Shown here piece by piece: positions 2,051 through 37,704 of a stretch of DNA of 37,704 nucleotides. The DNA is taken from IMG/VR virus record IMGVR_UViG_3300002461_000717, positions 1 through 37,704 of that record; one strand, written 5' to 3'. Below the pieces are notes generated by a model. That model made no database searches. It saw only the letters and a program-made list of their open reading frames with translations, and was not told the origin of the DNA. The stretch comes from a virus. Made by a program: the position numbers and the translations under genes. Numbering within the stretch: position 1 is the first letter of the stretch; every line of letters starts with the position of its first letter.

Positions 2051-2354
2051 TAGACTTTAGGGAATGAATCATTGCTTCATGACCTAATTTTGCCTCTTCA
2101 AGGGTTTCATACCGCATGATTTCTAATTCAAGATGGTCTTCTGCTATGACAGCGGTTTCAAAATAGCCATTAAATCTTAGTCCTTTCTCTGTGTAGATTA
2201 GAGAAGGAATTCCTATCCATACAGTTGAGATGAACTTATCTCCATAGTGTTCTTGTTTCACAATGCGGTATTTGTAATCTTCAAAGAGTTCTCCCCATTG
2301 CTGCACAGTGAGAGGCTTTCCCTCTTTGTCTCTATATATGAAATGACTATTCAT
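2034..2354 (-). CDS. Hypothetical protein (106 aa)
   Basis: ORF track. Its ATG overlaps the stop of the upstream small ORF (ATGA at 2351-2354). Convergent with terL. Confidence 0.6.
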   Translation of the reverse strand: MNSHFIYRDKEGKPLTVQQWGELFEDYKYRIVKQEHYGDKFISTVWIGIPSLIYTEKGLRFNGYFETAVIAEDHLELEIMRYETLEEAKLGHEAMIHSLKSTNACQ

Positions 2355-2521
2355 TTGTTCTTATGAGCTTCTTTCCTGATGATATCTGTCAGGGTTTGAT
2401 TGATCTCTGCAATCTTTTGCAACTCAATCACTAGACGTGCTTGTAGGTAATTCATCCTAAAATGTAAAACCACAATGTGAAGACACATCATGGCAAGCAA
2501 TAGGAAAGAGTGCGTCTTCAT
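2351..2521 (-). CDS. Small hydrophobic protein (56 aa), below the ORF-track cutoff
   Basis: Hand translation MKTHSFLLLAMMCLHIVVLHF...KEAHKNK. ATGA overlaps at both ends (2518-2521 and 2351-2354) indicate translational coupling. The N-terminus is hydrophobic. Confidence 0.45.
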   Translation of the reverse strand: MKTHSFLLLAMMCLHIVVLHFRMNYLQARLVIELQKIAEINQTLTDIIRKEAHKNK

Positions 2522-9050: not shown

Positions 9051-9509
9051 ATGTTGAGTTTTGAGAAAGGCCAGAAATTCACTGGTAAAGCAGCGTATGA
9101 TCTTCTGCATAAAGGTATTGAAGCCAATGAAATGCAAGAGGTTCAAGAGACAATTGATGCAATGACTCCCGCTTATATAGCTGAGCTGGAAGATTGCGCA
9201 CAAAAAAATAGCCGTAAGTATGACGGCAAATATTACATTGTTTGTCTCAGAAAAAAAGAGACGTTCTTTGTAAATGTCATAAGACAATGGTTCATAGCCC
9301 GTCAGACTAAGCCTATGCCAGATGTACTATTCAGAGATTATCCCAATTTTGATCATGATATTTGGGAAGTGTCACCTGGGGGAGACACCAAATTACTTTG
9401 GTCTCTCCCCCCTGGACAAGAACAACAAACTATTATGAAAAATCCCAGTCTTTACCATTCTGATCTAGTCAAATGGATCAGGGATTTTCAGAATGGATGC
9501 CTTATTTAG
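9051..9509 (+). CDS. Hypothetical protein (152 aa)
   Basis: ORF track. Its 3' end overlaps the convergent U-box gene by 8 nt. Confidence 0.6.
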   Translation: MLSFEKGQKFTGKAAYDLLHKGIEANEMQEVQETIDAMTPAYIAELEDCAQKNSRKYDGKYYIVCLRKKETFFVNVIRQWFIARQTKPMPDVLFRDYPNFDHDIWEVSPGGDTKLLWSLPPGQEQQTIMKNPSLYHSDLVKWIRDFQNGCLI

Positions 9510-10374
9510 CCACTAATGGATCAACTGATAAAACAGGATCTTCAATCTCTTCAGAAAAGATCTCTGTAACTTCTCTCATCTTACGTGAATATGCTTGAGG
9601 TGTAAGATCCCCGTTATTCAATTGGATAGTCAGATCTGTGCTTACCTGCTTCAAAATTTCAGCAGCCTGAAAGTCCAACCCTTTATAGATTGATTCAAAA
9701 CCTCTGACAATTGCTGGCGTGAATTCAGGGTTTTTCATCTCATTTTTAAGAACATTTGCGTAAGTTTTCTTGACCTTACCTACATATGTTATATCAGTAG
9801 TAAGTTGAGTCTTATTGAATACTCTACGGCAGTCAGGACATTTAGGCCCTCCTTCCGTACGTGCGTTTCTATCATAATATTCTTCAATATACACGCGCTC
9901 AAAAGTATGTCCACACATTGTTTGAACTGGATCTTTGATAATGTCCTTGCTTATAGAACATGTAAGACCTTGAAAAGCAGGAAGATTGTCACGTACTTGA
10001 ACAAATTTATCTATTACAGTTTTACCTTCAATAGAACTTTTCCAGTCTTCATAATCTCTATGAAGAACTACTCCACCAATAATGGCAGTAGTGACTAAAC
10101 CCGCCCCTAAGCCCACTGCTCCTCCAATAAGCATACCTTTAGGGCCAGCAGGCGCACCCAAAAGTGCTCCTCCAATAGTAAGACCGGCAGTGAGTTTGCC
10201 CCCGTCTTTTAATAGCCTTAAGGTTACTTCTTGTGTCTTATCTGCTCTAAAAAACTCAGCTGTGCGGTCTCTTTTTGCTGCAAATGTATCTGTGCGTGTA
10301 TACGCTACAAGTTCTTTGAATTCATCTTGCGGGATAGCATATGTACCCACTGAACTTCGTGCTGCTGATGTCAT
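9502..10374 (-). CDS. U-box/RING-like E3 ubiquitin ligase domain protein with bilobed hydrophobic anchor (track ORF extends to 10395)
   Basis: U-box-like segment LTCSISKDIIKDPVQTMCGHTFERVYIEEYY...KCPDCRRVF. Hydrophobic segment LTAGLTIGGALLGAPAGPKGMLIGGAVGLGAGLVTTAIIGGVVL. The ATG at 10374 has GGAG 7 nt upstream and an ATGA overlap with the upstream ORF. Confidence 0.8.
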   Translation of the reverse strand: MTSAARSSVGTYAIPQDEFKELVAYTRTDTFAAKRDRTAEFFRADKTQEVTLRLLKDGGKLTAGLTIGGALLGAPAGPKGMLIGGAVGLGAGLVTTAIIGGVVLHRDYEDWKSSIEGKTVIDKFVQVRDNLPAFQGLTCSISKDIIKDPVQTMCGHTFERVYIEEYYDRNARTEGGPKCPDCRRVFNKTQLTTDITYVGKVKKTYANVLKNEMKNPEFTPAIVRGFESIYKGLDFQAAEILKQVSTDLTIQLNNGDLTPQAYSRKMREVTEIFSEEIEDPVLSVDPLVAK

Positions 10375-10775
10375 ACTAATACTCCATTGTACCATTTATA
10401 AAATGTAATTGACAATCCTACTGCGGCACAAAATAATACTAATAAGCAACATGATAATGCTACCAATTTTTCTCTATCAATTGTGCAATCTAAACAGCTA
10501 ATTGTTACAAACCTAGATCTAAAAAACTCTGACGTCTTGTCTCTCTCTTTAACTTCACCCCGTTTTACTTTTTCTCTATGATCCTGAATGAAAATATGCA
10601 TTTGTACAAACTGATCAATGCTATCATAGGTTAGAGGAGGACAATTGACGCTGTTATCAGGATTAAGTGTGCAGAATTCGCGGTGCGCAGGGGTATAGAT
10701 GCTATTCTGAGTAGCATCATATCTAAACCCATTTGGGAGATTGTCAATTGTGTATGGAGTTCTAACAGCAGCCAT
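10371..10775 (-). CDS. C-terminally membrane-anchored protein sharing an RD[KR]T[SA]EFFR motif with the U-box protein (track start 10781 is TTG)
   Basis: ERDKTSEFFRS followed about 20 aa later by the TM segment LVALSCCLLVLFCAAVGLSITF. Translationally coupled to the U-box gene. Confidence 0.6.
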   Translation of the reverse strand: MAAVRTPYTIDNLPNGFRYDATQNSIYTPAHREFCTLNPDNSVNCPPLTYDSIDQFVQMHIFIQDHREKVKRGEVKERDKTSEFFRSRFVTISCLDCTIDREKLVALSCCLLVLFCAAVGLSITFYKWYNGVLV

Positions 10776-10800
10776 TACCAAGCATTCTTCACAAAGCCTT

Positions 10801-10828
10801 AATTTACGTCAAACGTCTTAATCTGCAA
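10801..10828 (-). promoter_or_regulatory. Promoter candidate for the U-box operon
   Basis: On the minus strand: TTGCAG (10828-10823), 16 nt spacer, TAAATT (10806-10801). Lies between the terminator at 10862-10897 and the ORF start. Confidence 0.35.
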
Positions 10829-10861
10829 GTTTTTTAGAAGTGTAACTCATAGCACCTAGAC

Positions 10862-10897
10862 AAAAAAAGCGGTGATTTGACCAGGCTGGCTCACCGC
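10862..10897 (-). terminator. Rho-independent terminator (minus strand)
   Basis: The minus strand reads GCGGTGA-15 nt loop-TCACCGC followed by TTTTTTT. Confidence 0.6.
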
Positions 10898-11407
10898 AAA
10901 GCCTTTTCAGAGTGATGCGCGTTTTAAACGCTCACCATACTTTTTCTACACGTGGTAGATAAGCTAAACGTAAGGCGCAAGAGTATAAATCACTGCCAAT
11001 GGAGTGTGCACGTCTGCATATCTCTTACGCCTCCGCATCTGTTTCCACAAAGTGGATCAGTCTCAAAAGCAAAGCCTTCCACCTCCAGATAAACTGGATT
11101 GAATATATAATACATTTTTGTAAAAAAAAGAGAGAGAGGATTCTCTCCCTTAACCATCTCTAATAAGGAGATATGAAAAGACATCTTGAACAGTTCTTAA
11201 TGAGACTAATGAGCCGCCATTGGCACATAGACAAAAGCGCTTAATGGGCTGCTGATACTCACCGCATTTAAAATAGGTCATGTGTGCCTATTCACCCAAC
11301 AGTTCCCCAAAGTTTCTACTTTAACCTCTGACGCATAACGTCAGCATTCAATTCCCCAGGGTAACTGCGCCGGCCAGGAAGTCCCAGCCCATTTTTTTTC
11401 AGCATGC
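10862..11407 (-). ncRNA. Candidate ~545-nt structured non-coding transcript (family unknown)
   Basis: No Shine-Dalgarno-preceded ORF on the minus strand. Bounded by a promoter-like element and the terminator. Multiple hairpins (11328-11344, 11272-11292, 10911-10936) and a 9-bp long-range complement (11243-11251 with 11385-11393). Confidence 0.3.
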
Positions 11408-11413
11408 ATCCAG

Positions 11414-11442
11414 ATTTTACCTCATAGAATCAATACTGGAAA
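11414..11442 (-). promoter_or_regulatory. Promoter candidate for the ORF-free transcript
   Basis: On the minus strand: TTTCCA (11442-11437), 17 nt spacer, TAAAAT (11419-11414). Overlaps the stop of ORF 11430..11675. Confidence 0.3.
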
Positions 11443-11675
11443 TGTATTTTAACCCATTTCTCTATGAAGTCAGTCAAATCTTTATAGGTTTCCAAATTTA
11501 ACTTTTGAGTATCTAAGTAGAAGTCCCTAAGCATTATTTTACATCTTCTAGTGCACCATTCATCATGCGTTTCTTCCTTTTCAGGTTTGACAAATCTTTC
11601 TGTCACATCATCCATTTTAATGTTCCAACTAACAGTTTTCATACGTTCCTCAGGTTTAGCATTTCTCTTAATCAT
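11430..11675 (-). CDS. Hypothetical protein (81 aa)
   Basis: ORF track. First gene of the reverse-strand island, divergent from the scaffold gene. Confidence 0.55.
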   Translation of the reverse strand: MIKRNAKPEERMKTVSWNIKMDDVTERFVKPEKEETHDEWCTRRCKIMLRDFYLDTQKLNLETYKDLTDFIEKWVKIHFQY

Positions 11676-11694
11676 GATCTATTCAAATATCTTT

Positions 11695-11723
11695 TTGACT
11701 TAAAGGAAAGTCTTTTGTATCTT
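11695..11723 (+). promoter_or_regulatory. Promoter candidate for the scaffold/capsid operon
   Basis: TTGACT (11695-11700), 17 nt spacer, TATCTT (11718-11723). Confidence 0.4.
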
Positions 11724-11816
11724 TAAAAATTAAACTTGACAACGTTAGCATGCGTTAATTGCGTCAAATCTGAGACTTAAGGCGTAAAAGAAGCTCGCCA
11801 CTTCAAAAGGAAAAGA

Positions 11817-12512
11817 ATGAACGCAGAAGAAACAGAGAGCGTAGAGGAGCAATCCTCAATGGCTGACGCTCAAGCCACTGAAGCGGGACAGCAGGAACCT
11901 CAGGTTGATGCTGCACAGCATAGAAAAAGAAACAATCTTGAGTACAACTGGGCAGAAGCAAGAAGAGGGCTTGCTGAGAGAGACAAGGAAATTCAGGATC
12001 TTAAAACGCAGTTACAATCCGTTTTGCAACCTCAAACACAAGAACCGCAGCTTAGTGATGATGACCTCTTAACTGCTAGAGATGGCAGAAAAGTAGTCAG
12101 ACAAGAAGCTTCAGAGATTGTGAAAGAAGCACTTAAACAATATGAGGCTTCAACGTTAGAAGAGCGTTTGCTTCAAAAGTACCCTGATTTCAATGACGTA
12201 GTCTCTCCTGACAATATAAATGTATTAAAGGAAACAGAGCCAGAACTCGCAATGTCTATAGCGTATCTGAAGGATGATCCAAAGGCTCAAAGCATTGCAG
12301 CTTATAAGTTACTGAAAAGGTTAGGGATTGGTACGAACAATTCCACACCAGAAAGAGACAAAGCACTTAAAAATGCTCAAAAACCTCTCTCTGTTAATGC
12401 AGTAACAAAATCATCTGCAATTGGTAATGCACACCTCTTTGAGAATGGACTGACTACAGAGTTGAAATCCCAGCTCTGGAAAGAAATGCAGGATTGCATG
12501 AAACGCGCATAA
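11817..12512 (+). CDS. Putative scaffolding protein
   Basis: Acidic, Q/E-rich and probably helical, 231 aa, immediately upstream of the major capsid gene. Positional inference. Confidence 0.55.
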   Translation: MNAEETESVEEQSSMADAQATEAGQQEPQVDAAQHRKRNNLEYNWAEARRGLAERDKEIQDLKTQLQSVLQPQTQEPQLSDDDLLTARDGRKVVRQEASEIVKEALKQYEASTLEERLLQKYPDFNDVVSPDNINVLKETEPELAMSIAYLKDDPKAQSIAAYKLLKRLGIGTNNSTPERDKALKNAQKPLSVNAVTKSSAIGNAHLFENGLTTELKSQLWKEMQDCMKRA

Positions 12513-14600: not shown

Positions 14601-15092
14601 ATGACAAGTAATAATTTAGAAATACCAAACCCAAAGAGGGTCAAAGGTGGCGCAAGTCCCGCAGCTAAAGAAAAGCTTCAGGAATTGATGAAAGAAGAAA
14701 GCCGCCTTGTAAAAGGAATGTTCCAGTGCTTTGAAACGCCTGGTTCCACTGTGAAAATATCAGTCCATAAATATCCAACCCCAGACAAAGGCGGCATTCA
14801 GCCCTTTGAGAAAACTATGACAGATGGAGAGTTCTATGAAGTGCCTCTCTACGTTGCAAGATTTCTTAATGGAATTGATGTAACCGCTAGTGCTTTAGGT
14901 GATCCCAATACACGTAACGTTCAGATTGGTACCTGCTCATATCCAATTCATGGTTTCAGATGGAATGGAAACAATGCACCTACTTCTAGCACTGATGCTC
15001 TGGGAGTGCCAATTCCGTTAATTGGCGTCTCTAAGAGAGTAAGACGCTATGGATTTCAATCAATGGAGTTTGCGGGCGAATGGGCAGCATAG
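14601..15092 (+). CDS. Virion-module protein (163 aa)
   Basis: GGAGG Shine-Dalgarno. Position in the structural operon. Confidence 0.6.
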   Translation: MTSNNLEIPNPKRVKGGASPAAKEKLQELMKEESRLVKGMFQCFETPGSTVKISVHKYPTPDKGGIQPFEKTMTDGEFYEVPLYVARFLNGIDVTASALGDPNTRNVQIGTCSYPIHGFRWNGNNAPTSSTDALGVPIPLIGVSKRVRRYGFQSMEFAGEWAA

Positions 15093-15454
15093 TAGCTCCT
15101 ACAATTCCGTTAATTCCTTTTACCCCGCAGGCGCGTGTGATTGCAAATATCACTAATGCTAACCCTGCGGTGGTAACTACTTCAGATCCTCACGGGTATT
15201 TATCTCTTCTACTCATCAGGTTTTTTTTGCCTGCTCCTACATATTTTGGGATGCAAGCTCTCAATAGCCAGGTTTACCAGATAACAGTTCTTTCCCCCAC
15301 TACCTTTTCAGTTCCAGTAGATACAAGCAAATTGGATGCCTTCACAACCGCAGGAACAGAACAAGTACCTCAAACTACTCCCACAGCAGAGAACGCTTTC
15401 ATCTTGTATCAGGCTGAAAGAAACGCATTGCCACCAATTGGAGGAGGAATATGA
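15080..15454 (+). CDS. Small structural protein with ANITNANPAVVTT...GMQALN...YQITV beta-barrel motif
   Basis: ORF track. The motif recurs in 13508..14554 and 17131..19665. Confidence 0.6.
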   Translation: MGSIVAPTIPLIPFTPQARVIANITNANPAVVTTSDPHGYLSLLLIRFFLPAPTYFGMQALNSQVYQITVLSPTTFSVPVDTSKLDAFTTAGTEQVPQTTPTAENAFILYQAERNALPPIGGGI

Positions 15455-16535: not shown

Positions 16536-17123
16536 ATGTCTTTTAACAGTAATATTCCTCAGGCTACAGATCTTATAAGTGTAAGTCAGCAAGATTTGCT
16601 CAATAACTTTACGTCAATGCAAAGCACCTATACCACGGACCATTATGGGTTTAATCCTCTCACAAATTTGGGCTATCACAAGCAAATTACTCTTGTAGAT
16701 GATGCTTTGGTAGTAAGATCAACAGCTGCTGGAAGACTCATTGAATACGCGGTTACCACTAACGCTCAAACATATCCCGCACTTCAAAGAGATGGTACCA
16801 CAACCGTTTATCAAGCACTTCCAATCAAAGCCTATGCATTATTTTTAACCAGTAATACTGGTAGTGCACCCGTTTCTTCATTCACTCTTCCCTATGCTAA
16901 TGTATCTGCAATCACACGCACAGGTGTTGGTACATATACTGTGACATTTGTGGATAATTTTCCAAACACGGCTTATGGAATTTTGAGCTCTTTCAATGCA
17001 TTTACTAGCATGATCATAACTGCTACTCCTTTAAGTACTAGCCAAATTCAAATCACTGTTAGGAGTCCCGCTGGAACGTTTAATGATATAAGTACCTTTA
17101 TCATGGTTGCCTGTCTTAATTAG
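16536..17123 (+). CDS. Possible tail tubular protein A-like (195 aa)
   Basis: Size and position ahead of the large tail protein resemble the T7 gp11/gp12 pair. No motif-level support. Confidence 0.4.
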   Translation: MSFNSNIPQATDLISVSQQDLLNNFTSMQSTYTTDHYGFNPLTNLGYHKQITLVDDALVVRSTAAGRLIEYAVTTNAQTYPALQRDGTTTVYQALPIKAYALFLTSNTGSAPVSSFTLPYANVSAITRTGVGTYTVTFVDNFPNTAYGILSSFNAFTSMIITATPLSTSQIQITVRSPAGTFNDISTFIMVACLN

Positions 17124-17130
17124 GAAAACA

Positions 17131-19665
17131 ATGACTGTAAGTTTACTCATCAAAAATCCGCGGAAAGGTCTAGAGAATGACATAGTTCCTGACCTATTGC
17201 CACAGGATGCATTTCCTACTCTTGAAGATGTATTCATGTTTAGAGGACGTGTAAGAAGACGTCGCGGTGCCAAAAGATTAGGACAAATAGTCAGCGGCGT
17301 TGTTGCAGAGGCTGTAGGAAGCGCCAATGGTGCAAACTTTGCAGGCACCTTAGCCCATACTCCTATTCAACCAGGCTCAGTTGTAATCACTGTGGGTGGT
17401 GTTACTTTTACTGATACAGGCAATGGAACATTCATGGGAGTTCCAGCGGGAAACACTGGAACAATCAATTATTTTACAGGAGCTATCTCACTTACGTTCG
17501 TTCCTCCCTTAGGAGGGGCTACGCCAGTAGTGGCCTCCTATTCTTTTTATAATTTCCTCCCAGTCATGGGATTAAGGACAAGAGAGCTAACAACAATCAA
17601 TGAAGAACAGCTCATTGGTTTTGATACTCTTAAAGCTAACGCATTTGTCTCAAGCGCTACTCCACCTCAATTTGTAGATATCTCATTCTATAAGACCACC
17701 AATCTAGCTTTCTCCTGGTCTGGTACTGATGCGCAATTCTTTTGGTCTACCAATTACCAGAACGCTTTCTTTGCTACAAACAACAACCCAGGTTTGCAGG
17801 TATTTGTAGTGACCAACGTTACAGCGGCTGCTAGCGCTGTGATTACCTTTACTGGAGGAGATGTATTTGTAAATGGTGACATCATCACTCTGACAAACGT
17901 TGTAGCAACAGCTGGAAGCACACTGAATGTGAATGGACTTACAGGAACAGTTACAGCGCATGCAGCTGGTACTGTTACCGTTACCATCAATACATCTGCT
18001 GGCTTTACGTATTCAAGTGGTGGATTGATTCATAGTTTAACGCGCACTCAAACAGGTGATGGAATTCGCTGGTATGATGGAACAGGTTGGGTGAATTTTC
18101 AACCGCCATTGAGCGCAACTACTACCGGTACAAATGTAAGTGTTTTGCAGACAGCGCTTATTCTTTTGCCTTACAAAGGTAGATTGCTTGCTCTAAATAC
18201 TCAAGAAGGAACTACCACAGGGCCTTCAACAAATTTTGCTCAAAGGGCACGCTATTCTGAAATTGGTACTGTGTATTATAACGCATTGACACCTCAAGGT
18301 TTTACAGGGGGATTTCAAGCGGATGCATGGAGAGATGACATTGTGGGAAGAGGAGGGTTTATTGATGCTCCTACCAGTGAACAAATTGTCTCAGCAGAAT
18401 TTATTAAAGACACAGTGGTTGTTTTTTTTGAGCGTTCAACTTATCAGCTCCGCTATACAGGGGACCCTACAATCCCCTTTATCTGGGAAAAAATCAATGC
18501 AGAGCTTGGAGCAGAGTCTACATTTAGCATTGTCCCTTTTGATAGGGGCATATATGGGGTAGGAAATTACGGTATTGTCACGTGTGACTCAGTAAATGTA
18601 GCAAGAATAGATCAGATCATTCCAGATGAAGTATTTAAAATTCACAACACTAACAATGGAGTGAGGCGGGTACATGGAATTAGAGACTACACAAAGCAGT
18701 TGGTTTATTGGACATTCCCTAATGATGTTGTCTTCACCAATAACGTCACCACCACCAAGTTTCCCACCCGGGTTCTCATTCTTAATTACCTTGATGGTTC
18801 TTATTCTTTCTTTAATGACTCGCTAACGTGTTTTGGTCAATTCCAAGCATTTAGGGATATCCGTTGGATAGATCTGCCAATACAATGGCAAAATTATCCG
18901 GAAAAATGGAATTCAGGAAGTTTGCAACAAGATTATCCTGTGATAGTTGCGGGCAATCAGCAAGGATATGTCTTCTTTTATAATCAGGATCAATCTGAAT
19001 CTCCTGTAAATGATCCTTCTCTTTCCATATCCGGTGCAACGCAAGCATCACCTGCACAAATCACAGCAGTTAATCACAATTTACAGGATGGTCAATTCAT
19101 CCAAATTACTGGTGTCAATGGCATGACTCAGTTGAATAGCAATGCCTTATCCCCTAATGGAATTTATCAGGTTTTAGCTGTCACGGGTATGAATACCTTC
19201 ACAATTTCTTATTATGATTCAGTATTGAATAACTTTTTCCCAGTAGATTCCACAGCATTTAGTGCCTACACAAATGGTGGAGAAATTGCTGTTCTCAATA
19301 ATTTTAATGTGATTAGCAAGCAATTTAGTCCCTTTGAAGATCAAGTACTTCAGGCGCGTTTGACCTACATGGATATTTTTGTGGATGCAGCAGCTAATGG
19401 GCAATTTAGTGTTAATTTCTATCTAAATCAAGATGATGACACCATTGTCACCACTGATGTCTCAGTTGCGCAAACGAATACGGGACAGCAAAGAATTTGG
19501 TTCAGAACTATCCCTAATGTCACAGCTGAATATATCCAATTCCAAATGACTCTTAGCAATGATCAATTGAATGATCCTCAATTCTTTGATTTTGACTTCA
19601 CGTTGCATGCAGTTATGATGAATTTCCAACCCGCATCTCGCTTCATGTTTGGAGTGCAATTATGA
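17131..19665 (+). CDS. Large tail protein, possibly tubular B/nozzle-like (track start 17107 is TTG)
   Basis: 844 aa from the ATG at 17131, with an AGGAAA Shine-Dalgarno. The N-terminal LLPQDAFPTLEDVFMFRGRVRRRRG resembles podovirus tail tubular B N-termini by eye. Confidence 0.5.
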   Translation: MTVSLLIKNPRKGLENDIVPDLLPQDAFPTLEDVFMFRGRVRRRRGAKRLGQIVSGVVAEAVGSANGANFAGTLAHTPIQPGSVVITVGGVTFTDTGNGTFMGVPAGNTGTINYFTGAISLTFVPPLGGATPVVASYSFYNFLPVMGLRTRELTTINEEQLIGFDTLKANAFVSSATPPQFVDISFYKTTNLAFSWSGTDAQFFWSTNYQNAFFATNNNPGLQVFVVTNVTAAASAVITFTGGDVFVNGDIITLTNVVATAGSTLNVNGLTGTVTAHAAGTVTVTINTSAGFTYSSGGLIHSLTRTQTGDGIRWYDGTGWVNFQPPLSATTTGTNVSVLQTALILLPYKGRLLALNTQEGTTTGPSTNFAQRARYSEIGTVYYNALTPQGFTGGFQADAWRDDIVGRGGFIDAPTSEQIVSAEFIKDTVVVFFERSTYQLRYTGDPTIPFIWEKINAELGAESTFSIVPFDRGIYGVGNYGIVTCDSVNVARIDQIIPDEVFKIHNTNNGVRRVHGIRDYTKQLVYWTFPNDVVFTNNVTTTKFPTRVLILNYLDGSYSFFNDSLTCFGQFQAFRDIRWIDLPIQWQNYPEKWNSGSLQQDYPVIVAGNQQGYVFFYNQDQSESPVNDPSLSISGATQASPAQITAVNHNLQDGQFIQITGVNGMTQLNSNALSPNGIYQVLAVTGMNTFTISYYDSVLNNFFPVDSTAFSAYTNGGEIAVLNNFNVISKQFSPFEDQVLQARLTYMDIFVDAAANGQFSVNFYLNQDDDTIVTTDVSVAQTNTGQQRIWFRTIPNVTAEYIQFQMTLSNDQLNDPQFFDFDFTLHAVMMNFQPASRFMFGVQL

Positions 19666-20156
19666 CCGTCAGTCAGCCAGTCAATAATCAATCCAGTTTT
19701 CTTCCTACTACAACGGTTCTGCCAGAAGATCCAAAAGAATTGCTTATTGTACTGACTAAAAACTTCAAAGATATTGCTAACTTCATTAATATCAGGGAAA
19801 TAGCAATCTATGAAACCATTGAAATTCTGACAGGTGAACAGTGGACAAATCCAGGTCAACCTACAAATAGACGTCAAACATTTAGGAAAATTTACTATTT
19901 TGGAACCATTGCTCCTGGAGCTAATTTGGCTATTCCCACCGGAATCACATCCGTGACATCTTATACTCACATTTATGGCACTGTGAATACAAATGTGCCA
20001 GATGCACGCTCCATTCCGTTTGCTGATGTGACTGCTGTGACAAATCAAATATCAGTGATTATAGATAATGTGGCCGCTACAGCCACAATCTTTAATGGCG
20101 CAACAGCTCCTACAATTACCAACGGAATTCTTGTTTTAGAGTATCTCAAATCCTAA
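19662..20156 (+). CDS. Tail-module protein (164 aa)
   Basis: ATGA overlap with the preceding gene. Confidence 0.6.
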   Translation: MTVSQPVNNQSSFLPTTTVLPEDPKELLIVLTKNFKDIANFINIREIAIYETIEILTGEQWTNPGQPTNRRQTFRKIYYFGTIAPGANLAIPTGITSVTSYTHIYGTVNTNVPDARSIPFADVTAVTNQISVIIDNVAATATIFNGATAPTITNGILVLEYLKS

Positions 20157-20471
20157 GTCAAACCGCGCATTTCCATCCTTATCTTGTACGGGACAGCAAA
20201 GCAATTCATGACTTTCATCACCAAATTTTCTGCATACATCTGGCCTATCTTCATAAATTGCACAGGATAAATCTTTCTGCAAAAATGGACAGAAAAGATC
20301 TTCCGTTATAGGAATCAATACATCTCCTTCTTTGGATGTTCCATGCATTTCCTGGATGACTTTTCTTTGGATAAGATCTGACTTTTCTTTCCATAAGCTC
20401 AATTTTATAGGCACTACGCCACAACATCTTGCTTTGCACTGTCCGTGGAATTTCTTACATTCAAATGGCAT
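20136..20471 (-). CDS. YkgJ/UPF0153-like Cys-rich Zn/Fe-chelating domain protein
   Basis: CKARCCG near the N-terminus and CPFL...CAIYEDRPDVCRKF fit the CxxCxxCC-family pattern. Confidence 0.7.
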   Translation of the reverse strand: MPFECKKFHGQCKARCCGVVPIKLSLWKEKSDLIQRKVIQEMHGTSKEGDVLIPITEDLFCPFLQKDLSCAIYEDRPDVCRKFGDESHELLCCPVQDKDGNARFDLGFEIL

Positions 20472-23627: not shown

Positions 23628-23846
23628 TTATTTATTCCTCTCTATTTCTAAAAGTCTGTGATGGAAATCTTTCATTTCATTTTCTATAGCTCTCACTAAA
23701 TTTAAGATGTCTTTCCTATCTTCTTTTGCTTCAGCACGCAATGTATTTGATTCTGTACGTACCCAAAACATCATTGAAATGACTACACCAATCATTGCAA
23801 TTCCAGTTCCTACTACAGCAATGATGATTCCTATGTCTTGTATCAT
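23628..23846 (-). CDS. Small membrane protein (72 aa; holin-like topology is speculative)
   Basis: N-terminal TM segment IGIIIAVVGTGIAMIGVVISMMFWV followed by a charged helix. Confidence 0.55.
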   Translation of the reverse strand: MIQDIGIIIAVVGTGIAMIGVVISMMFWVRTESNTLRAEAKEDRKDILNLVRAIENEMKDFHHRLLEIERNK

Positions 23847-29380: not shown

Positions 29381-29722
29381 CTAGAAAGGCAACTCAAACA
29401 TGTCATCTTGAGTTTCAACAGGTTCTGCCTTCTTAGCCACAAAAGCTTTAGGAGCCATTGGATCATAGATTTTCATAGCAGCAATGATTTGCTTGCTAAA
29501 CTCATCTTGATCCTCTTTGTGCATTTGAATGATGTCTGCATATTTGGTTTCCCCACTCTCATTCTTGTAGGGCCTACTGGGCATATTTACCCAATACTTT
29601 CCACCATTTGCAAAGACGCTACACCCTTTGATTAGCCATTTTTTATCTGAATCATAGATATCCAAATACCCTTTCAGGTTCTTCTTATTCTCTACCTTTC
29701 TGTATTCCACAATCTTGTACAT
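29381..29722 (-). CDS. SpoVG-like protein, paralogue 1 (track start 29743)
   Basis: LKGYLDIY...IKGCSVFANGGKYWVNMPSRPYK parallels the SpoVG pattern (...IRVIDGNNGLFVAMPSKR...). AAGGA lies 5 nt before the ATG at 29722. Confidence 0.55.
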   Translation of the reverse strand: MYKIVEYRKVENKKNLKGYLDIYDSDKKWLIKGCSVFANGGKYWVNMPSRPYKNESGETKYADIIQMHKEDQDEFSKQIIAAMKIYDPMAPKAFVAKKAEPVETQDDMFELPF

Positions 29723-29770
29723 AAACATCCTTTTAGTCTTCATGACTTAAAGAAATATTTATGACTTTTT

Positions 29771-30070
29771 CTAGGCTTTTGTCAACTCAATTTTTAAAAA
29801 CTTATCTGCTTCTTGGATGATACTTTGGATCATCTCATCATGAATCTCTTTGTTAGAGAAAGAAATATGTGGATACCACACCATTTCTTTTGTCTCTGCA
29901 TCTAGGGTTTTGCGTCCTGGCATTTGATAAAACCACCCACCTTTAGCGCCTTTGTGTACTGCAATGCCACGGATATCCAGATCCAAATCTACAAGATAGA
30001 CATGGAGGGTTCCTTTGATCTTATTTTTTTTGTCTGTGTTTTTGTAAAATCCAACTATCTCTACTTTCAT
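29771..30070 (-). CDS. SpoVG-like protein, paralogue 2
   Basis: IKGTLHVYLVDLDLDIRGIAVHKGAKGGWFYQMPGRK shows the same pattern. Confidence 0.55.
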   Translation of the reverse strand: MKVEIVGFYKNTDKKNKIKGTLHVYLVDLDLDIRGIAVHKGAKGGWFYQMPGRKTLDAETKEMVWYPHISFSNKEIHDEMIQSIIQEADKFLKIELTKA

Positions 30071-31600: not shown

Positions 31601-31755
31601 CTTTACATGTTATGAACATCCGCCAACATAAATGTTCTGTATAATTTTAGTCTATACACTTGTGTTTCAGCCTCCAAAGTATTAAGAGATCTTTAAAATG
31701 CAAAAAAATGTTCTTTGCTTTAGACTATTGCGTTTCAAATGCTAAAGGAAATCTC

Positions 31756-32157
31756 ATGCTCACACAAATCTTATCAAGTTTAGTATTTATTTTTGGCATG
31801 TTGGGAGCATTATCCTGCATTATTTTTTCTTTTAAAAGTTACAAGCAGACTAGAAAGCTAATGACACAGGCAGTACAGGGACAAGATCACATTCAAAGAG
31901 TGATGGAGCATGCCTTAAAAGATTCTCAGAATGCATTTTTTAACATGCAAAATGAGATAAGAGGATCAGCGAATCACTCTGATGCAAAGCTAGAAAAAAT
32001 TGTAACTTTGTTACAGGATATTCAGTGTCAAGTGAGAGATTTGAATATGAGAGTCACCATAGCTGAGGTGAGATTAGAGGAGAGGAAGCCACAGACTACT
32101 TTATCTGCGCTTCCATCTCCTGCTAAAAGAGGAAGAAAACCTAAGCAGCTCACTTAG
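31756..32157 (+). CDS. Membrane-anchored coiled-coil protein with basic C-terminus (track start 31660 is TTG)
   Basis: TM segment MLTQILSSLVFIFGMLGALSCIIFSF. AAAGGA lies before the ATG at 31756. C-terminal PAKRGRKPKQLT. Confidence 0.55.
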   Translation: MLTQILSSLVFIFGMLGALSCIIFSFKSYKQTRKLMTQAVQGQDHIQRVMEHALKDSQNAFFNMQNEIRGSANHSDAKLEKIVTLLQDIQCQVRDLNMRVTIAEVRLEERKPQTTLSALPSPAKRGRKPKQLT

Positions 32158-37610: not shown

Positions 37611-37704
37611 CTAAAAAAAGTTGTTAAAAAAAAGATTTGATGGTAAACAAATTTTCATGATCTCAAAATAGGAATGAAGATGGGAAAAGTATTTGGAAAA
37701 GGTG
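37611..37704. repeat. Terminal direct repeat, right copy (identical to 1..94)
   Basis: Same 94 nt as the window start, including the start of ORF 64..255. Confidence 0.95.

Follow-up and report, generated by a model that had tools for sequence, protein, structure and literature searches.

Ubiquitination in eukaryotes has its signature enzymes in the U-box and RING ligases. From bacteria, to our knowledge, these have been described almost exclusively as effectors that pathogens and symbionts secrete, and the one well-studied phage case of which we are aware is NleG, a divergent protein family from enterobacterial prophages. What, then, does a gene for such a protein do in the genome of a small tailed phage? 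The gene lies on a 37,704-nt viral record that comes from an environmental metagenome (IMG/VR IMGVR_UViG_3300002461_000717; hereafter the window), and the original prediction held that it encodes a eukaryotic-type ubiquitin ligase domain fused to a bilobed membrane anchor, carried by a phage to manipulate the eukaryotic host of its bacterium. The proposed carrier, a tailed phage with a small podovirus-like genome, was borne out: we found TerL, a P22-type portal and a major head protein, and the genome is complete, measures 37.6 kb and has podovirus features. Overlooked in that first reading were a partner gene coupled to the U-box gene and the membership of the U-box protein in a large family on phage contigs.

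The open frame (9502..10395, minus strand) encodes 297 aa, and residues are numbered by this ORF throughout. The start codon is likely M8 (nt 10374), whose ATG is preceded by a GGAG at a distance of 7 nt and forms the overlap ATGA (10371-10374) with the TGA stop of the ORF before it; the resulting product of 290 aa is identical to database protein P0001. Its conserved N-terminal region is followed by a glycine-zipper hairpin of 46 aa, then by the RING/U-box domain and lastly by a C-terminal domain of helices (Table 1). Because the Pfam scores of the window protein itself barely exceed their cutoffs, one might suspect a chance resemblance, or an ORF with no real gene behind it. This suspicion is refuted, and its probability is close to nil: 22 full-length homologues with 41-100% identity are conserved domain by domain, 190 representatives are found at E < 1e-10, the family profile matches solved U-boxes with E-values of 1e-15 to 1e-25, the predicted fold is of high confidence, and the GC fraction of the gene (0.398) is close to that of the genome (0.393).

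Table 1. Positions of the two-gene cassette, its protein domains and its candidate signals in the window
Feature	Position (nt)	Strand	Description and basis
U-box/RING gene	9502..10374	-	290-aa product from M8; stop codon 9502-9504
C-terminal helical domain, aa 204-297	9505..9786	-	Three predicted helices
RING/U-box domain, aa 143-203	9787..9969	-	Pfam, PDB searches, AF2/Foldseek, column conservation
Glycine-zipper membrane hairpin, aa 66-111	10063..10200	-	Two helices, PAGPKG between
N-terminal region, aa 8-65	10201..10374	-	Clade-specific motif FTRTDTF..(K/R)RDRT(A/S)E(F/Y)FRADKT
Partner gene, 134 aa	10371..10775	-	N-terminal YT(I/V)xNLPxGF, one C-terminal membrane helix (tail anchor)
Sigma-70-like promoter candidate	10784..10812	-	TTGACG-17-AAGAAT; consensus scan, 9/12 matches
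Terminator-like hairpin	10862..10897	-	GCGGTGA-15 nt-TCACCGC then TTTTTTT; read from sequence

The U-box signature, originally placed at nt 9766-9978, is present at aa 144-198 (nt 9802-9966), so that its location had been roughly right, and the expected matches to U-box and RING profiles were obtained above the curated Pfam cutoffs. We use RING/U-box superfamily for the Pfam clan that includes PF04564 (U-box), PF00097 and PF11789. The best Pfam match of the window protein was to zf-Nse (9.9e-07, 28.9 bits; cutoff 27), accompanied by matches to zf-C3HC4 (1.5e-4, 22 bits; cutoff 21) and U-box (PF04564; 1.6e-4, 22.2 bits; cutoff 21.4). When the domain alone was compared with PDB sequences, it matched the RING of TRIM30 (1e-07), TRIM25 (2e-05) and the U-box of GmPUB13 (3e-04), and a family profile of the same region matched LubX (5.4e-25), rice PUB12 (8.7e-16), Prp19 (5e-12), CHIP (3e-11) and human NSE2 (3.8e-10), as well as GmPUB13 and AtPUB14. 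Among the 94 family members, 73 match the Pfam U-box model (best 1.7e-16) and 32 match zf-Nse.

The first pair of zinc ligands had been described as degenerate, as in U-boxes rather than RINGs. Site I is indeed lost in the window copy (C146, S149, E166, Y169), but the residues of site II (C161-x-H163 ... C186-x-x-C189) are intact and invariant in 18 close homologues, which is the ligand pattern of SP-RING domains. Since these ligands are kept, the window protein reads as a RING/U-box hybrid of SP-RING type with one predicted zinc site, and not as a zinc-free U-box; neither it nor its 18-member clade has both zinc sites replaced, as a strict U-box would. No SUMO-pathway context was seen for it. 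Across the family the site II ligands are less constant (C161 in 31/94, H163 in 55/94, C186 in 46/94, C189 in 22/94), and because C189 is a cysteine in only 22 members, all four ligands can be kept in at most 22, and most members fit the strict U-box definition.

Residues C161, H163, C186, C189 and R190 align with C3, H4, C7, C8 and the arginine after C8 of the TRIM30 and TRIM25 RINGs, and the CPDCR of the window protein aligns with CPQCR of TRIM25 and CPVCR of TRIM30. Candidate E2-contact positions in the window protein are I148, Y173 (W in most members), P187 and R190; that such positions touch the E2 is what we take to be the case from the structures of CHIP, c-Cbl, RNF4 and TRIM proteins. 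The mean column identity of the family is only 13%, and the putative contact columns are nonetheless held: I/L/V148 in 88/94 members, P156 in 87/94, Y/F165 in 86/94, E/D166 in 88/94, I/L/V170 in 90/94, W/Y/H173 in 73/94, P187 in 87/94 and R/N190 in 60/94. The elements that persist are CP(I/L/V)(T/S), DPV, G-H-x-(Y/F)-(E/D)-(R/K), I..W, and (C/D)P with R or N three residues after the P.

The predicted structure agrees with the profile matches. An AF2 model built from a 94-sequence alignment reached a pLDDT of 89.2 and a pTM of 0.74, with pLDDT values of 95-98 across the RING/U-box domain, which adopts the cross-brace beta-beta-alpha fold. Foldseek placed TRIM69, TRIM21 and TRIM25 first, then CHIP and PUB13, with a probability of 1.00 and target-normalised TM-scores of 0.7-0.83; the fold that AlphaFold had been expected to reveal is thus confidently modelled and superposable on RING/U-box structures, CHIP included. 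Several of the matched structures contain a bound E2 (TRIM21-UBE2E1, TRIM25-UbcH5, CHIP-UbcH5 and LubX-UBE2D2). In a library of viral structures every named match belonged to a eukaryotic virus and none to a phage. By sequence profile and by predicted fold, the domain belongs to the RING/U-box superfamily. The three helices that follow it (aa 202-219, 227-260 and 266-280; pLDDT > 90) gave no PDB structure match outside the RING region in Foldseek; G206, K209, E219, F233, Q243, E246, K249, L255, Q258, T265, R271, R274 and E275 are invariant, and this C-terminal domain is a candidate substrate-binding or dimerisation module.

On the other side of the RING/U-box domain lies the predicted membrane anchor. 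The Gly/Ala-rich hydrophobic stretch of about 45 aa, split by PAGPKG, was found exactly where the original prediction had put it (Table 1). Its 46 residues include 14 glycines and a single internal charge, K86; G84, P85, G87, G91, G95 and G99 are invariant or nearly so among close homologues, G76, G87, G91, G95 and G99 are at least 90% conserved in the 94-member alignment, and some members match Pfam Gly-zipper_YMGG/OmpA. The AF2 helices around it span aa 52-79 and 85-136. A hairpin is therefore present, as the proposal of two back-to-back transmembrane helices implied, but the first helix is weakly hydrophobic (maximum of 1.37 on the Kyte-Doolittle scale over 15 residues, versus 1.8-2.0 for the second). 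The comparison with the bilobed anchors of chlamydial inclusion-membrane (Inc) proteins may apply to the split segment, but the segment is a GxxxG glycine zipper and the bilobed feature is not specific to Inc proteins. Glycine-zipper hairpins are frequent in ordinary bacterial membrane proteins. A match of 20 members to DUF6861 was set aside, as it covers the Gly-zipper segment only and is below cutoff in the five matching members individually examined.

A two-helix hairpin would place the N-terminal region on the same side of the membrane as the U-box and helical domains. The N-terminal region is predicted by AF2 to be helical, and T33, R34, R42, D43, R44, E47, F49, A51, D52 and T54 are invariant among 18 homologues. 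We considered a Tat signal here and rejected it on inspection, as about 25 largely charged residues separate RRDR from the hydrophobic segment. Some copies of the partner protein have an RDRTSE(F/Y)FR-like motif as well, likewise before their anchor.

Through the overlapping stop and start codons the U-box gene is translationally coupled to this partner, whose single membrane helix has a hydropathy of 2.62 (aa 105-123). Homologues of the partner gene lie directly upstream of the U-box gene at loci L001, L003, L004, L005, L006, L092, L094 and L096, and at L009 a non-homologous tail-anchored protein of 127 aa takes its position. The partner protein matched nothing in Pfam, PHROGs or PADLOC. It was considered as an E2 or a ubiquitin-like protein and rejected as an E2: it has no invariant cysteine, which an E2 would need, only about 105 soluble residues and no match to any family.

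The original prediction also described a reverse-strand cassette with a promoter-like element of its own. Both genes are indeed on the minus strand, and a sigma-70-like site lies upstream of them, where it is a consensus match only, one of 14 such sites in the region against 7.7 expected. Further upstream is a terminator-like hairpin, which a hairpin scan with a loop limit of 8 nt did not return; it would end the preceding minus-strand unit and so make the cassette a transcription unit of its own. In the window the cassette lies inside the structural module, on the strand opposite to the structural genes. Its reverse orientation, promoter-like site, upstream terminator-like hairpin and variable position among phages are those of a phage accessory ('moron') cassette, in this case one of two membrane proteins.

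Two small membrane proteins inside a structural module could also serve the phage in a way that has nothing to do with ubiquitin. The RING/U-box fold, stabilised by zinc, would then mediate protein binding or dimerisation in a pair of membrane proteins with a role in superinfection exclusion, in lysis timing (holin- or antiholin-like) or as a virion-delivered membrane protein. Such roles are vacant, in that no endolysin, holin or spanin was recognised anywhere in the genome with Pfam and PHROGs, and the predicted flanking helices resemble those of dimeric TRIM RINGs. Burroughs et al. are said to have argued in 2011 that some prokaryotic RINGs are unrelated to ubiquitin, and one of the 94 members matches the family of the P22 ejection protein gp7 (5.6e-4). 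That match is single and weak, and probably comes from the Gly-rich segment. A protein of 290 aa, with about 190 soluble C-terminal residues and no recognised endolysin gene adjoining, is unlike a holin, and the cassette, being accessory and mobile, is no constant component of a module for lysis or structure. The columns conserved in this very divergent family go beyond the structural core and are those that in known ligases contact the E2 and activate E2~Ub. We therefore regard a purely non-ligase role as improbable, and the U-box protein as probably an E2-recruiting membrane E3.

The family to which the protein belongs is large and undescribed, and its members have so far turned up on the contigs of phages related to this one. 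The architecture of the window protein recurs in about 93 of the 147 new representatives within the top 150 matches, and every member whose contig was checked lies on a phage-like contig of 6-43 kb, with the exception of one copy inside a contig of 379 kb. No member was found in 50,697 deposited phage records or in 72,556 plasmids, where the only matches were remote ones to the portal, a result that is neutral as to a phage-plasmid lifestyle, and clade-specific patterns found none of the close clade in 185,579 GTDB species genomes. A search for distant members with the 94-sequence profile mostly returned the close clade. A scan of JGI metagenomes yielded three short full-length relatives; the remaining matches share the RING/U-box motif only, and several of these look, on reading of the sequences, like algal LONRF-type genes, others being short U-box proteins whose contigs show no clear connection to phages.

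The phage lineage itself, with at least 214 IMG/VR contigs, abounds in metagenomes from bulk soil and peat, and within it the cassette moves. There is one copy per locus, and its genomic position differs in L001, L003, L008, L009, L200 and L230; no more than 5 of the 80 relatives have it less than 10 kb away from the portal, and of these 2 are strong cases. Across 72 relatives the gap between TerL and portal, which holds the cassette in L001 and L092, measures anything between 67 nt and 6 kb and contains unrelated cargo, and neighbouring accessory slots carry methyltransferases, HNH nucleases and ParB-like proteins. The combination of a U-box, a membrane hairpin and a tail-anchored partner, as a large and diverse family on environmental phage contigs, is new.

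Several known systems resemble this protein in part. The Legionella pneumophila effectors LubX (with two U-boxes), GobX and RavN share the canonical U-box signature, and LubX is the top solved-structure match of the family profile (52.9 bits for U-box 1, 35.8 bits for U-box 2). GobX is membrane-targeted by lipidation. These effectors differ in being chromosomal Dot/Icm substrates with neither a membrane hairpin nor a tail-anchored partner gene, whereas the window protein keeps its predicted zinc site, and the homology is limited to a domain of about 60 aa. Precedent for a U-box ligase as phage cargo comes from the type III effectors NleG (EHEC) and StoD (Salmonella Typhi), the nleG genes being located on lambdoid prophages. 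NleG proteins differ, however: they are soluble, their U-box is highly divergent, they have substrate-binding domains at the N-terminus, and both the temperate phages that encode them and the pathogen, which has a type III secretion system, are known. The window protein had no match to Pfam T3SS_NleG, and only one of the 94 members did (3.3e-4). Ligase activity of NleG and StoD with UBE2D and UBE2E enzymes has been reported, as has the membrane targeting of GobX (PMC12591485).

Membrane-bound RING-CH ligases, which include the cellular MARCH family and the viral K3/K5 (KSHV), mK3 and poxvirus M153R, offer a parallel for the proposed working principle. Like the viral ones, the window protein is virus-encoded, and it would share with MARCH and K3/K5 a RING-type domain tethered by a two-helix hairpin, facing the cytosol and probably choosing its substrates in the membrane; in these proteins, however, the RING-CH comes first and the hairpin after it, two zincs are bound, and the viruses are eukaryotic. 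We detected no sequence relationship between the window protein and RING-CH ligases. SP-RING/zf-Nse proteins (Nse2/Mms21 and the Siz/PIAS SUMO ligases) have the same ligand pattern, with site I lost and site II kept, but a canonical U-box without zinc is what the family consensus and the majority of members show, and the window protein has neither an SP-CTD or SIM context nor a link to SUMO or Ubc9. TRIM21, TRIM25, TRIM30 and TRIM69 are closest by single-sequence search and predicted structure (24-32% identity, TM-score up to 0.83) and share LxCxI..., DPV..xCGHxF, CPxCR and flanking helices; in contrast, they bind two zincs, continue with B-box, coiled coil and PRY-SPRY, and are animal proteins that are not membrane-anchored. 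The likeness to Inc proteins lies in a short N-terminal region, a bilobed hydrophobic segment of 40-60 aa and a functional domain on one side; no sequence similarity to them was found, nor did anything in the context point to chlamydiae or Wolbachia. The eukaryotic association module of Wolbachia phage WO reportedly consists of phage genes aimed at the bacterium's eukaryotic host, but it has multiple genes where this phage has a single eukaryote-like domain.

Taken together, these comparisons point to a membrane-anchored protein of E3-ligase type within the RING/U-box superfamily, which would work on the principle of MARCH, K3/K5 and similar RING ligases that are bound to membranes. The U-box would dock a charged E2~ubiquitin (or ubiquitin-like) conjugate at the membrane and promote transfer to a substrate, which might be picked by the C-terminal helical domain, by helix-helix contacts within the membrane, or by both; the partner protein could act as adaptor, substrate or anchor. 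The cognate E2 is most likely of eukaryotic type, because the consensus is near those of eukaryotic and effector U-boxes and the phage has no recognisable E1, E2 or ubiquitin-like protein: a Pfam scan of the 44 window ORFs found no E1 adenylation domain, E2/UBC, ubiquitin-like or JAB family. The only ubiquitin-named matches among these ORFs were the U-box itself and E1_FCCH. The latter, present in two tail-module proteins, was considered as a second link to ubiquitin and rejected, because podophages of Pelagibacter, Vibrio and Xanthomonas commonly have this domain in their tail tubular protein B. The characterised bacterial and prophage U-box proteins LubX, GobX, RavN, NleG and StoD all use eukaryotic E2s (PMC12591485). 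With such an E2, the protein may act on the ubiquitin system of a eukaryote, whether a protist or another, in which the bacterial host lives or by which it is ingested. This full statement, an E2-recruiting membrane E3 acting on a eukaryotic target, we hold tentatively, at somewhat short of an even chance. No integrase match was found in the window phage, so the stable lysogen expression usual for effector morons is not evident, and no other eukaryote-like domain (ankyrin, F-box or LRR) was found there.

The enzyme could instead work inside the bacterium. The premise of the original prediction that bacteria lack ubiquitin is outdated, as bacteria have the ubiquitin-like conjugation systems Bil, Bub and CBASS, with Bil attacking the tail proteins of phages (PMC11601596). 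At the inner membrane, on its cytoplasmic side, where a predicted zinc-binding Cys/His domain beside a hairpin anchor would fit, the U-box might engage an E2-like enzyme of prokaryotic origin, from Bil, Bub, CBASS-Cap2 or a eukaryote-like E1/E2/RING operon, either to sequester or redirect that system as anti-defence or to modify a host or phage protein. The conflict cargo in adjoining accessory slots and the recurrence of the gene across a soil-abundant phage lineage are in keeping with this. Against it, the family consensus is near eukaryotic U-boxes and not divergent prokaryotic RINGs, and the phage brings no recognisable E1, E2 or ubiquitin-like gene of its own. PADLOC, whose library holds defence and not anti-defence proteins, gave no match for the U-box protein, the partner, two neighbouring ORFs, one distant window ORF or three homologues. 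We know of no bacterial E2 that works with a U-box or RING partner, Bil, Bub and Cap2 functioning without an E3. We consider action within the bacterium somewhat less likely than action on a eukaryotic target.

The host bears on the choice between a eukaryotic and a bacterial target. The only cellular flank seen for the family, that of the copy in the 379-kb contig (L001), favours a bacterial target: it adjoins iscS-iscR-tsaD of free-living Ca. Sulfotelmatobacter-like Acidobacteriota, and the flanking IscS is 93-94% identical to those of soil metagenome-assembled genomes (Acidobacteriota by genome scan). A replication-protein search found no member on that contig. The junction is doubtful and possibly chimeric, because the phage lineage has a GC content of 32-45%, the flank 58% and cultured Terriglobales phages 51-58%; the window phage has 39%. 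The lineage, with its low GC and its use of Shine-Dalgarno sites, probably infects a low-GC bacterium, and its composition fits, without proving, protist-associated Gram-negative hosts. Its abundance in soil and peat is easier to explain with abundant free-living hosts.

On balance we lean, if only slightly, towards a widespread and unrecognised family of membrane-anchored U-box E3s that is mobile cargo of soil and peat podophages and acts through either the ubiquitin system of a eukaryote or a bacterial ubiquitin-like system. The question is directly testable, given a small protein with predicted key residues and a wealth of natural variants, some of which have the zinc site while others lack it. 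In the eukaryotic case, phages of protist-associated bacteria would supply a ubiquitin-hijacking membrane effector, the first outside the prophage NleG family and the first in environmental phages; in the bacterial case, phage-bacterium conflict would gain its first E3-type component. Should eukaryotic E2s be what the family acts on, soil tailed phages would shape the interactions between bacteria and protists, and should it act on bacterial ubiquitin-like systems, an E3 would be added to prokaryotic ubiquitin-like biology.

The minus-strand open reading frame claimed by the original prediction is real and encodes 297 residues, whose numbering is used throughout. Translation probably starts at the second Met (M8, nt 10374), as a GGAG lies just ahead of it and the ATG shares the sequence ATGA with the TGA stop codon of the upstream ORF; the resulting product of 290 residues is identical to the database protein P0001. 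The U-box motif quoted in that prediction and its Gly/Ala-rich stretch split by PAGPKG are both present (see the table). The GC content of the gene (0.398) is close to that of the genome (0.393), and therefore nothing suggests a very recent transfer.

Coordinates and matches of features of the window phage
Feature	Position (nt)	Strand	Match or detail
Terminal direct repeat	1-94 and 37611-37704		exact, 94 nt
Membrane-protein candidate	2351-2521	(-)	
U-box ORF	9502-10395	(-)	297 aa
U-box motif	9802-9966	(-)	aa 144-198
Gly/Ala-rich stretch	10063-10200	(-)	aa 66-111
N-terminal region of U-box protein	10201-10374	(-)	RDRTSE(F/Y)FR-like motif
Partner gene	10371-10775	(-)	134 aa, directly upstream of U-box gene, translationally coupled
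Promoter-like site of cassette	10812-10784	(-)	
Terminator-like hairpin	10897-10862	(-)	would close preceding minus-strand unit
Second tail-module protein	15080-15454	(+)	Pfam E1_FCCH 2.6e-06
852-aa tail protein	17107-19665	(+)	Pfam E1_FCCH 2.8e-09
ORF within tail module	20136-20471	(-)	Pfam CxxCxxCC 8.5e-07, above cutoff
Membrane-protein candidate	23628-23846	(-)	
SpoVG-like paralogue	29381-29743	(-)	Pfam SpoVG 2.4e-05, sub-cutoff
SpoVG-like paralogue	29771-30070	(-)	Pfam SpoVG 2.4e-05, sub-cutoff
Membrane-protein candidate	31708-32157	(+)	
Large terminase			phrog_2, 4e-52
P22-type portal			5e-74
Major head protein			7e-27
Other recognised genes			RecT, PD-(D/E)XK nuclease, RusA, replication initiator, metallophosphatase

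Residues 143-203 matched the RING/U-box superfamily in Pfam through zf-Nse (9.9e-07), zf-RING_UBOX (3.9e-05), zf-C3HC4 (1.5e-04), and U-box (1.6e-04), with three of these four matches exceeding the curated cutoffs. Compared on its own with the sequences of solved structures, the domain matched TRIM30 (1e-07), TRIM25 (2e-05), GmPUB13 (3e-04), and NSE2 (6e-04). When a profile of the domain region was built from 35 diverse family members, the matches were LubX (5.4e-25, to both of its U-boxes) and rice PUB12 (8.7e-16), with further matches to GmPUB13, AtPUB14, Prp19 (5e-12), CHIP (3e-11), NSE2 (3.8e-10), and TRIM21 (8e-08), a result that we regard as decisive, at the level of sequence, for the identity of the domain. 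An AlphaFold model based on 18 sequences was mediocre (pLDDT 62) and good over the RING/U-box domain, and one based on the 94-member alignment of the wider family reached a pLDDT of 89.2 for the whole chain and a pTM of 0.74. Foldseek searches of the PDB retrieved exclusively RING and U-box domains (TRIM69, TRIM21, TRIM25, RAG1, TRAF6, CHIP, LubX, and PUB13), with target-normalised TM-scores of 0.7-0.83, and found no solved structure matching the remainder of the protein. By profile and by predicted fold alike, the protein belongs to the RING/U-box superfamily, as originally predicted.

The same prediction had classed the domain as a U-box, a description that in its strict, zinc-free sense does not fit the window copy. 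Residue alignments to TRIM25 and TRIM30 indicate that zinc site I is lost (C146, S149, E166, and Y169) and that the ligands of site II (C161, H163, C186, and C189) are intact, so that the protein appears to be a one-zinc hybrid with the ligand pattern of an SP-RING, which is why zf-Nse is its best Pfam match; the ligand pattern is shared with SP-RINGs, but the SUMO context is absent. CGHTFE and CPxCR are invariant among the 18 close homologues. In the wider family, most members are canonical U-boxes that lack zinc ligands and follow the pattern CPI(T/S)...DPV..P.G(H)x(Y/F)(E/D)(R/K)..I..W....(D/C)P.T(R/K).P(L), and by column counts no more than 22 of the 94 members can have kept the four ligands of site II together; the transition from RING to U-box is thus represented within the family. 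The best-kept columns among the 94 members are I/L/V148, P156, V157, G162, Y/F165, E/D166, I/L/V170, W173, P187, and R/N190, which, judging from structures of CHIP, c-Cbl, RNF4, and TRIM proteins, we take to include the positions that touch the E2 as well as the activating residue that follows the last ligand. Retention of these contact columns is the main argument that the domain may bind an E2; a non-catalytic role at the membrane seems to us improbable.

A word-indexed search returned 22 proteins with 41-100% identity, mostly on contigs of ~38 kb, and an exhaustive scan of 1.84 billion representatives with a profile gave 3,811 matches at E ≤1e-3, 190 of them at ≤1e-10. Among the best 150 of the 3,811 matches, 147 were new, and ~93 of these 147 have the same architecture (Gly-rich hairpin, U-box, and helical tail within 200-420 aa); the others are mostly long proteins that match in the RING/U-box stretch alone. 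Five of ten distant members that we looked up are on contigs of 39.2-42.8 kb. The U-box gene is present in one copy per locus, and its position differs between L008 and L009, two of these distant members' loci that belong to related phages with the tail protein, terminase, RusA/ERF, and DUF551. No similar proteins were found in deposited phages, plasmids, or PADLOC, and the named matches in a viral structure library were to eukaryotic viruses in every case.

A different U-box architecture is found on a contig listed as viral (L007, the same as L100; IMGVR_UViG_3300027747_004440, 48 kb, 57% GC), where positions 9965-12286 encode a protein of 774 aa whose N-terminal U-box is of the CGHTFER type; judged by eye, a vWA-like segment (DNSGSMG) comes next and the C-terminus is Hint/intein-like. 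Short soluble U-box proteins that share this CGHTFER half-RING motif (136-137 aa, counted from the first Met), together with larger U-box fusions, are encoded on L101, L105 (a 101-kb contig), L111, L129, L130, and L132, which have 37-45% GC and no evident phage link; these genes may be of bacterial origin, and the phage domain may derive from them or be related to them.

The exact repeat shared by both ends of the window indicates that the contig is a complete, circularly assembled phage genome of 37,610 bp, by gene content that of a tailed phage. No integrase, endolysin, holin, or spanin was recognised by Pfam or PHROGs in the complete genome, no tRNA was found in it, and it encodes few other membrane-protein candidates. 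A nucleotide search of 50,697 deposited phage records found no match, and identity of the portal to its counterparts in phiR18, KPP25, and Bcep22 is only 23-26%. Two proteins of the tail module match E1_FCCH, a domain of the ubiquitin-activating enzyme E1. We rejected this as a second link to ubiquitin, as it is a generic podophage tail domain: tail tubular protein B of podophages of Pelagibacter, Vibrio, and Xanthomonas contains the segment too, and some of these records are annotated 'FCCH domain ubiquitin-activating enzyme E1'. We also note two adjacent SpoVG-like paralogues in the early region and, on the reverse strand within the tail module, an ORF with a putative zinc- or iron-chelating domain (CxxCxxCC) that may be another accessory insert.

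The cassette, formed by the U-box gene and that of a small tail-anchored partner, lies on the strand opposite to the flanking portal-side and scaffold/capsid genes, and has a promoter-like site, as proposed. The portal of a related phage on L001 recruits at least 214 IMG/VR contigs at 72-84% identity, and genomes of this lineage are 36-43 kb long. A family match was located within 10 kb of the portal in five of 80 relatives, and was strong in two (L200 and L230). In L001 and L092 the cassette is housed in the gap between TerL and portal, which among 72 relatives ranges from 67 nt to ~6 kb and variously carries helicases, HNH nucleases, DNA methyltransferases, ParA/ParB-like proteins, a collagen-like protein, a metallophosphatase, and more. 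This gap is an accessory-gene hotspot, and such a hypervariable slot with unrelated cargo marks the cassette as mobile accessory cargo rather than a core gene.

The membrane hairpin is a glycine zipper whose residues G84, G87, G91, G95, and G99 do not vary within the close clade; its segment has 14 Gly in 46 residues and one internal charge, K86, and hydrophobicity is strong in helix 2 and weak in helix 1. Pfam Gly-zipper families are matched by some family members, and matches to DUF6861 are confined to the Gly-zipper segment and sub-cutoff in all five DUF6861-matching members examined individually. The hairpin topology would place the N-terminal region on the same side of the membrane as the U-box with its helical C-terminal domain. 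The partner has a conserved YT(I/V)xNLPxGF at its N-terminus and a membrane helix at its C-terminus. Its homologues occupy the equivalent position in eight other loci, and in the distant locus L009 this position is filled by a non-homologous tail-anchored protein of the same size. The partner was considered as an E2 and ruled out, because it has no invariant Cys and no family match. An RDRTSE(F/Y)FR-like motif lies ahead of the membrane segment in both the partner and the N-terminal region of the U-box protein; among partner copies it is found in the window, L003, L004, and L006 and not in the others. By the tests applied, the U-box protein does not fall among the NleG effectors, the holins, or the known defence proteins, and it is probably not an Inc protein either.

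Evidence on the host comes largely from L001, a locus on a 378,905-bp long-read contig (ENA ERZ25039482 contig_49541) in which the same cassette encodes P0024, 45% identical to the window protein. At ~13,100-13,650 of L001, or about 76.0-76.3 kb of the contig, 39%-GC phage DNA joins 58%-GC DNA encoding IscS, IscR, a response regulator, TsaD, CCA-adding enzyme, DciA, and GatC, and the IscS is 93-94% identical to those of Acidobacteriaceae / Ca. Sulfotelmatobacter genomes assembled from soil metagenomes. Homology to the soil genomes stops ~85 nt after the iscS stop, at the expected iscU start, and low-GC phage-like DNA extends to about L001 position 13,500. Either a prophage has split the isc operon at this point, or the long-read assembly is chimeric. 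If the insertion is true, the host would be a free-living peat or soil acidobacterium, and the proposal that the protein manipulates a eukaryotic host of the phage's bacterium would suffer. The insertion is doubtful because it would split the isc operon, because the whole phage lineage has 32-45% GC, and because the five cultured Terriglobales phages have 51-58% GC (PMC11924767); that no integrase is visible in the portion of the L001 phage read also counts against it. An unrelated short-read assembly contains this phage as well, at 99% identity and with its terminase intact. In the window and in the related IMG/VR contigs L156-L235, 30-35% of first start codons have a Shine-Dalgarno-like motif (GGAG/GAGG/AGGA) 4-16 nt upstream, compared to 6-8% of control positions; the host probably relies on Shine-Dalgarno-dependent initiation, a finding that speaks against Bacteroidota-type hosts and tells us little else.

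Phage-borne U-box effectors (NleG) and membrane-tethered viral RING ligases (K3/K5) are already known, and MARCH and K3/K5 ligases act by recruiting charged E2 at the membrane. To our knowledge, the combination of a canonical U-box, a glycine-zipper hairpin, and a tail-anchored partner in a large family of environmental tailed phages has no prior description, and our literature searches found nothing comparable to a hairpin-fused, partner-paired phage U-box family. By analogy with those ligases, we consider it reasonably likely that the U-box would bring a charged E2 to the membrane and that the helical domain, the partner, or both would select the targets. As to the system in which this would take place, action inside the bacterium, together with conjugation systems of the Bil, Bub, or CBASS type, appears rather unlikely, and we lean towards the eukaryotic ubiquitin system because the consensus is close to those of eukaryotic and effector U-boxes, because no E1, E2, or ubiquitin-like protein is recognisable among the phage's own products, and because all characterised bacterial or prophage U-boxes act with eukaryotic E2s (PMC12591485). 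Taken as a whole, the statement that the family encodes E2-recruiting membrane ligases that would act on the eukaryotic ubiquitin system is one we put forward tentatively.
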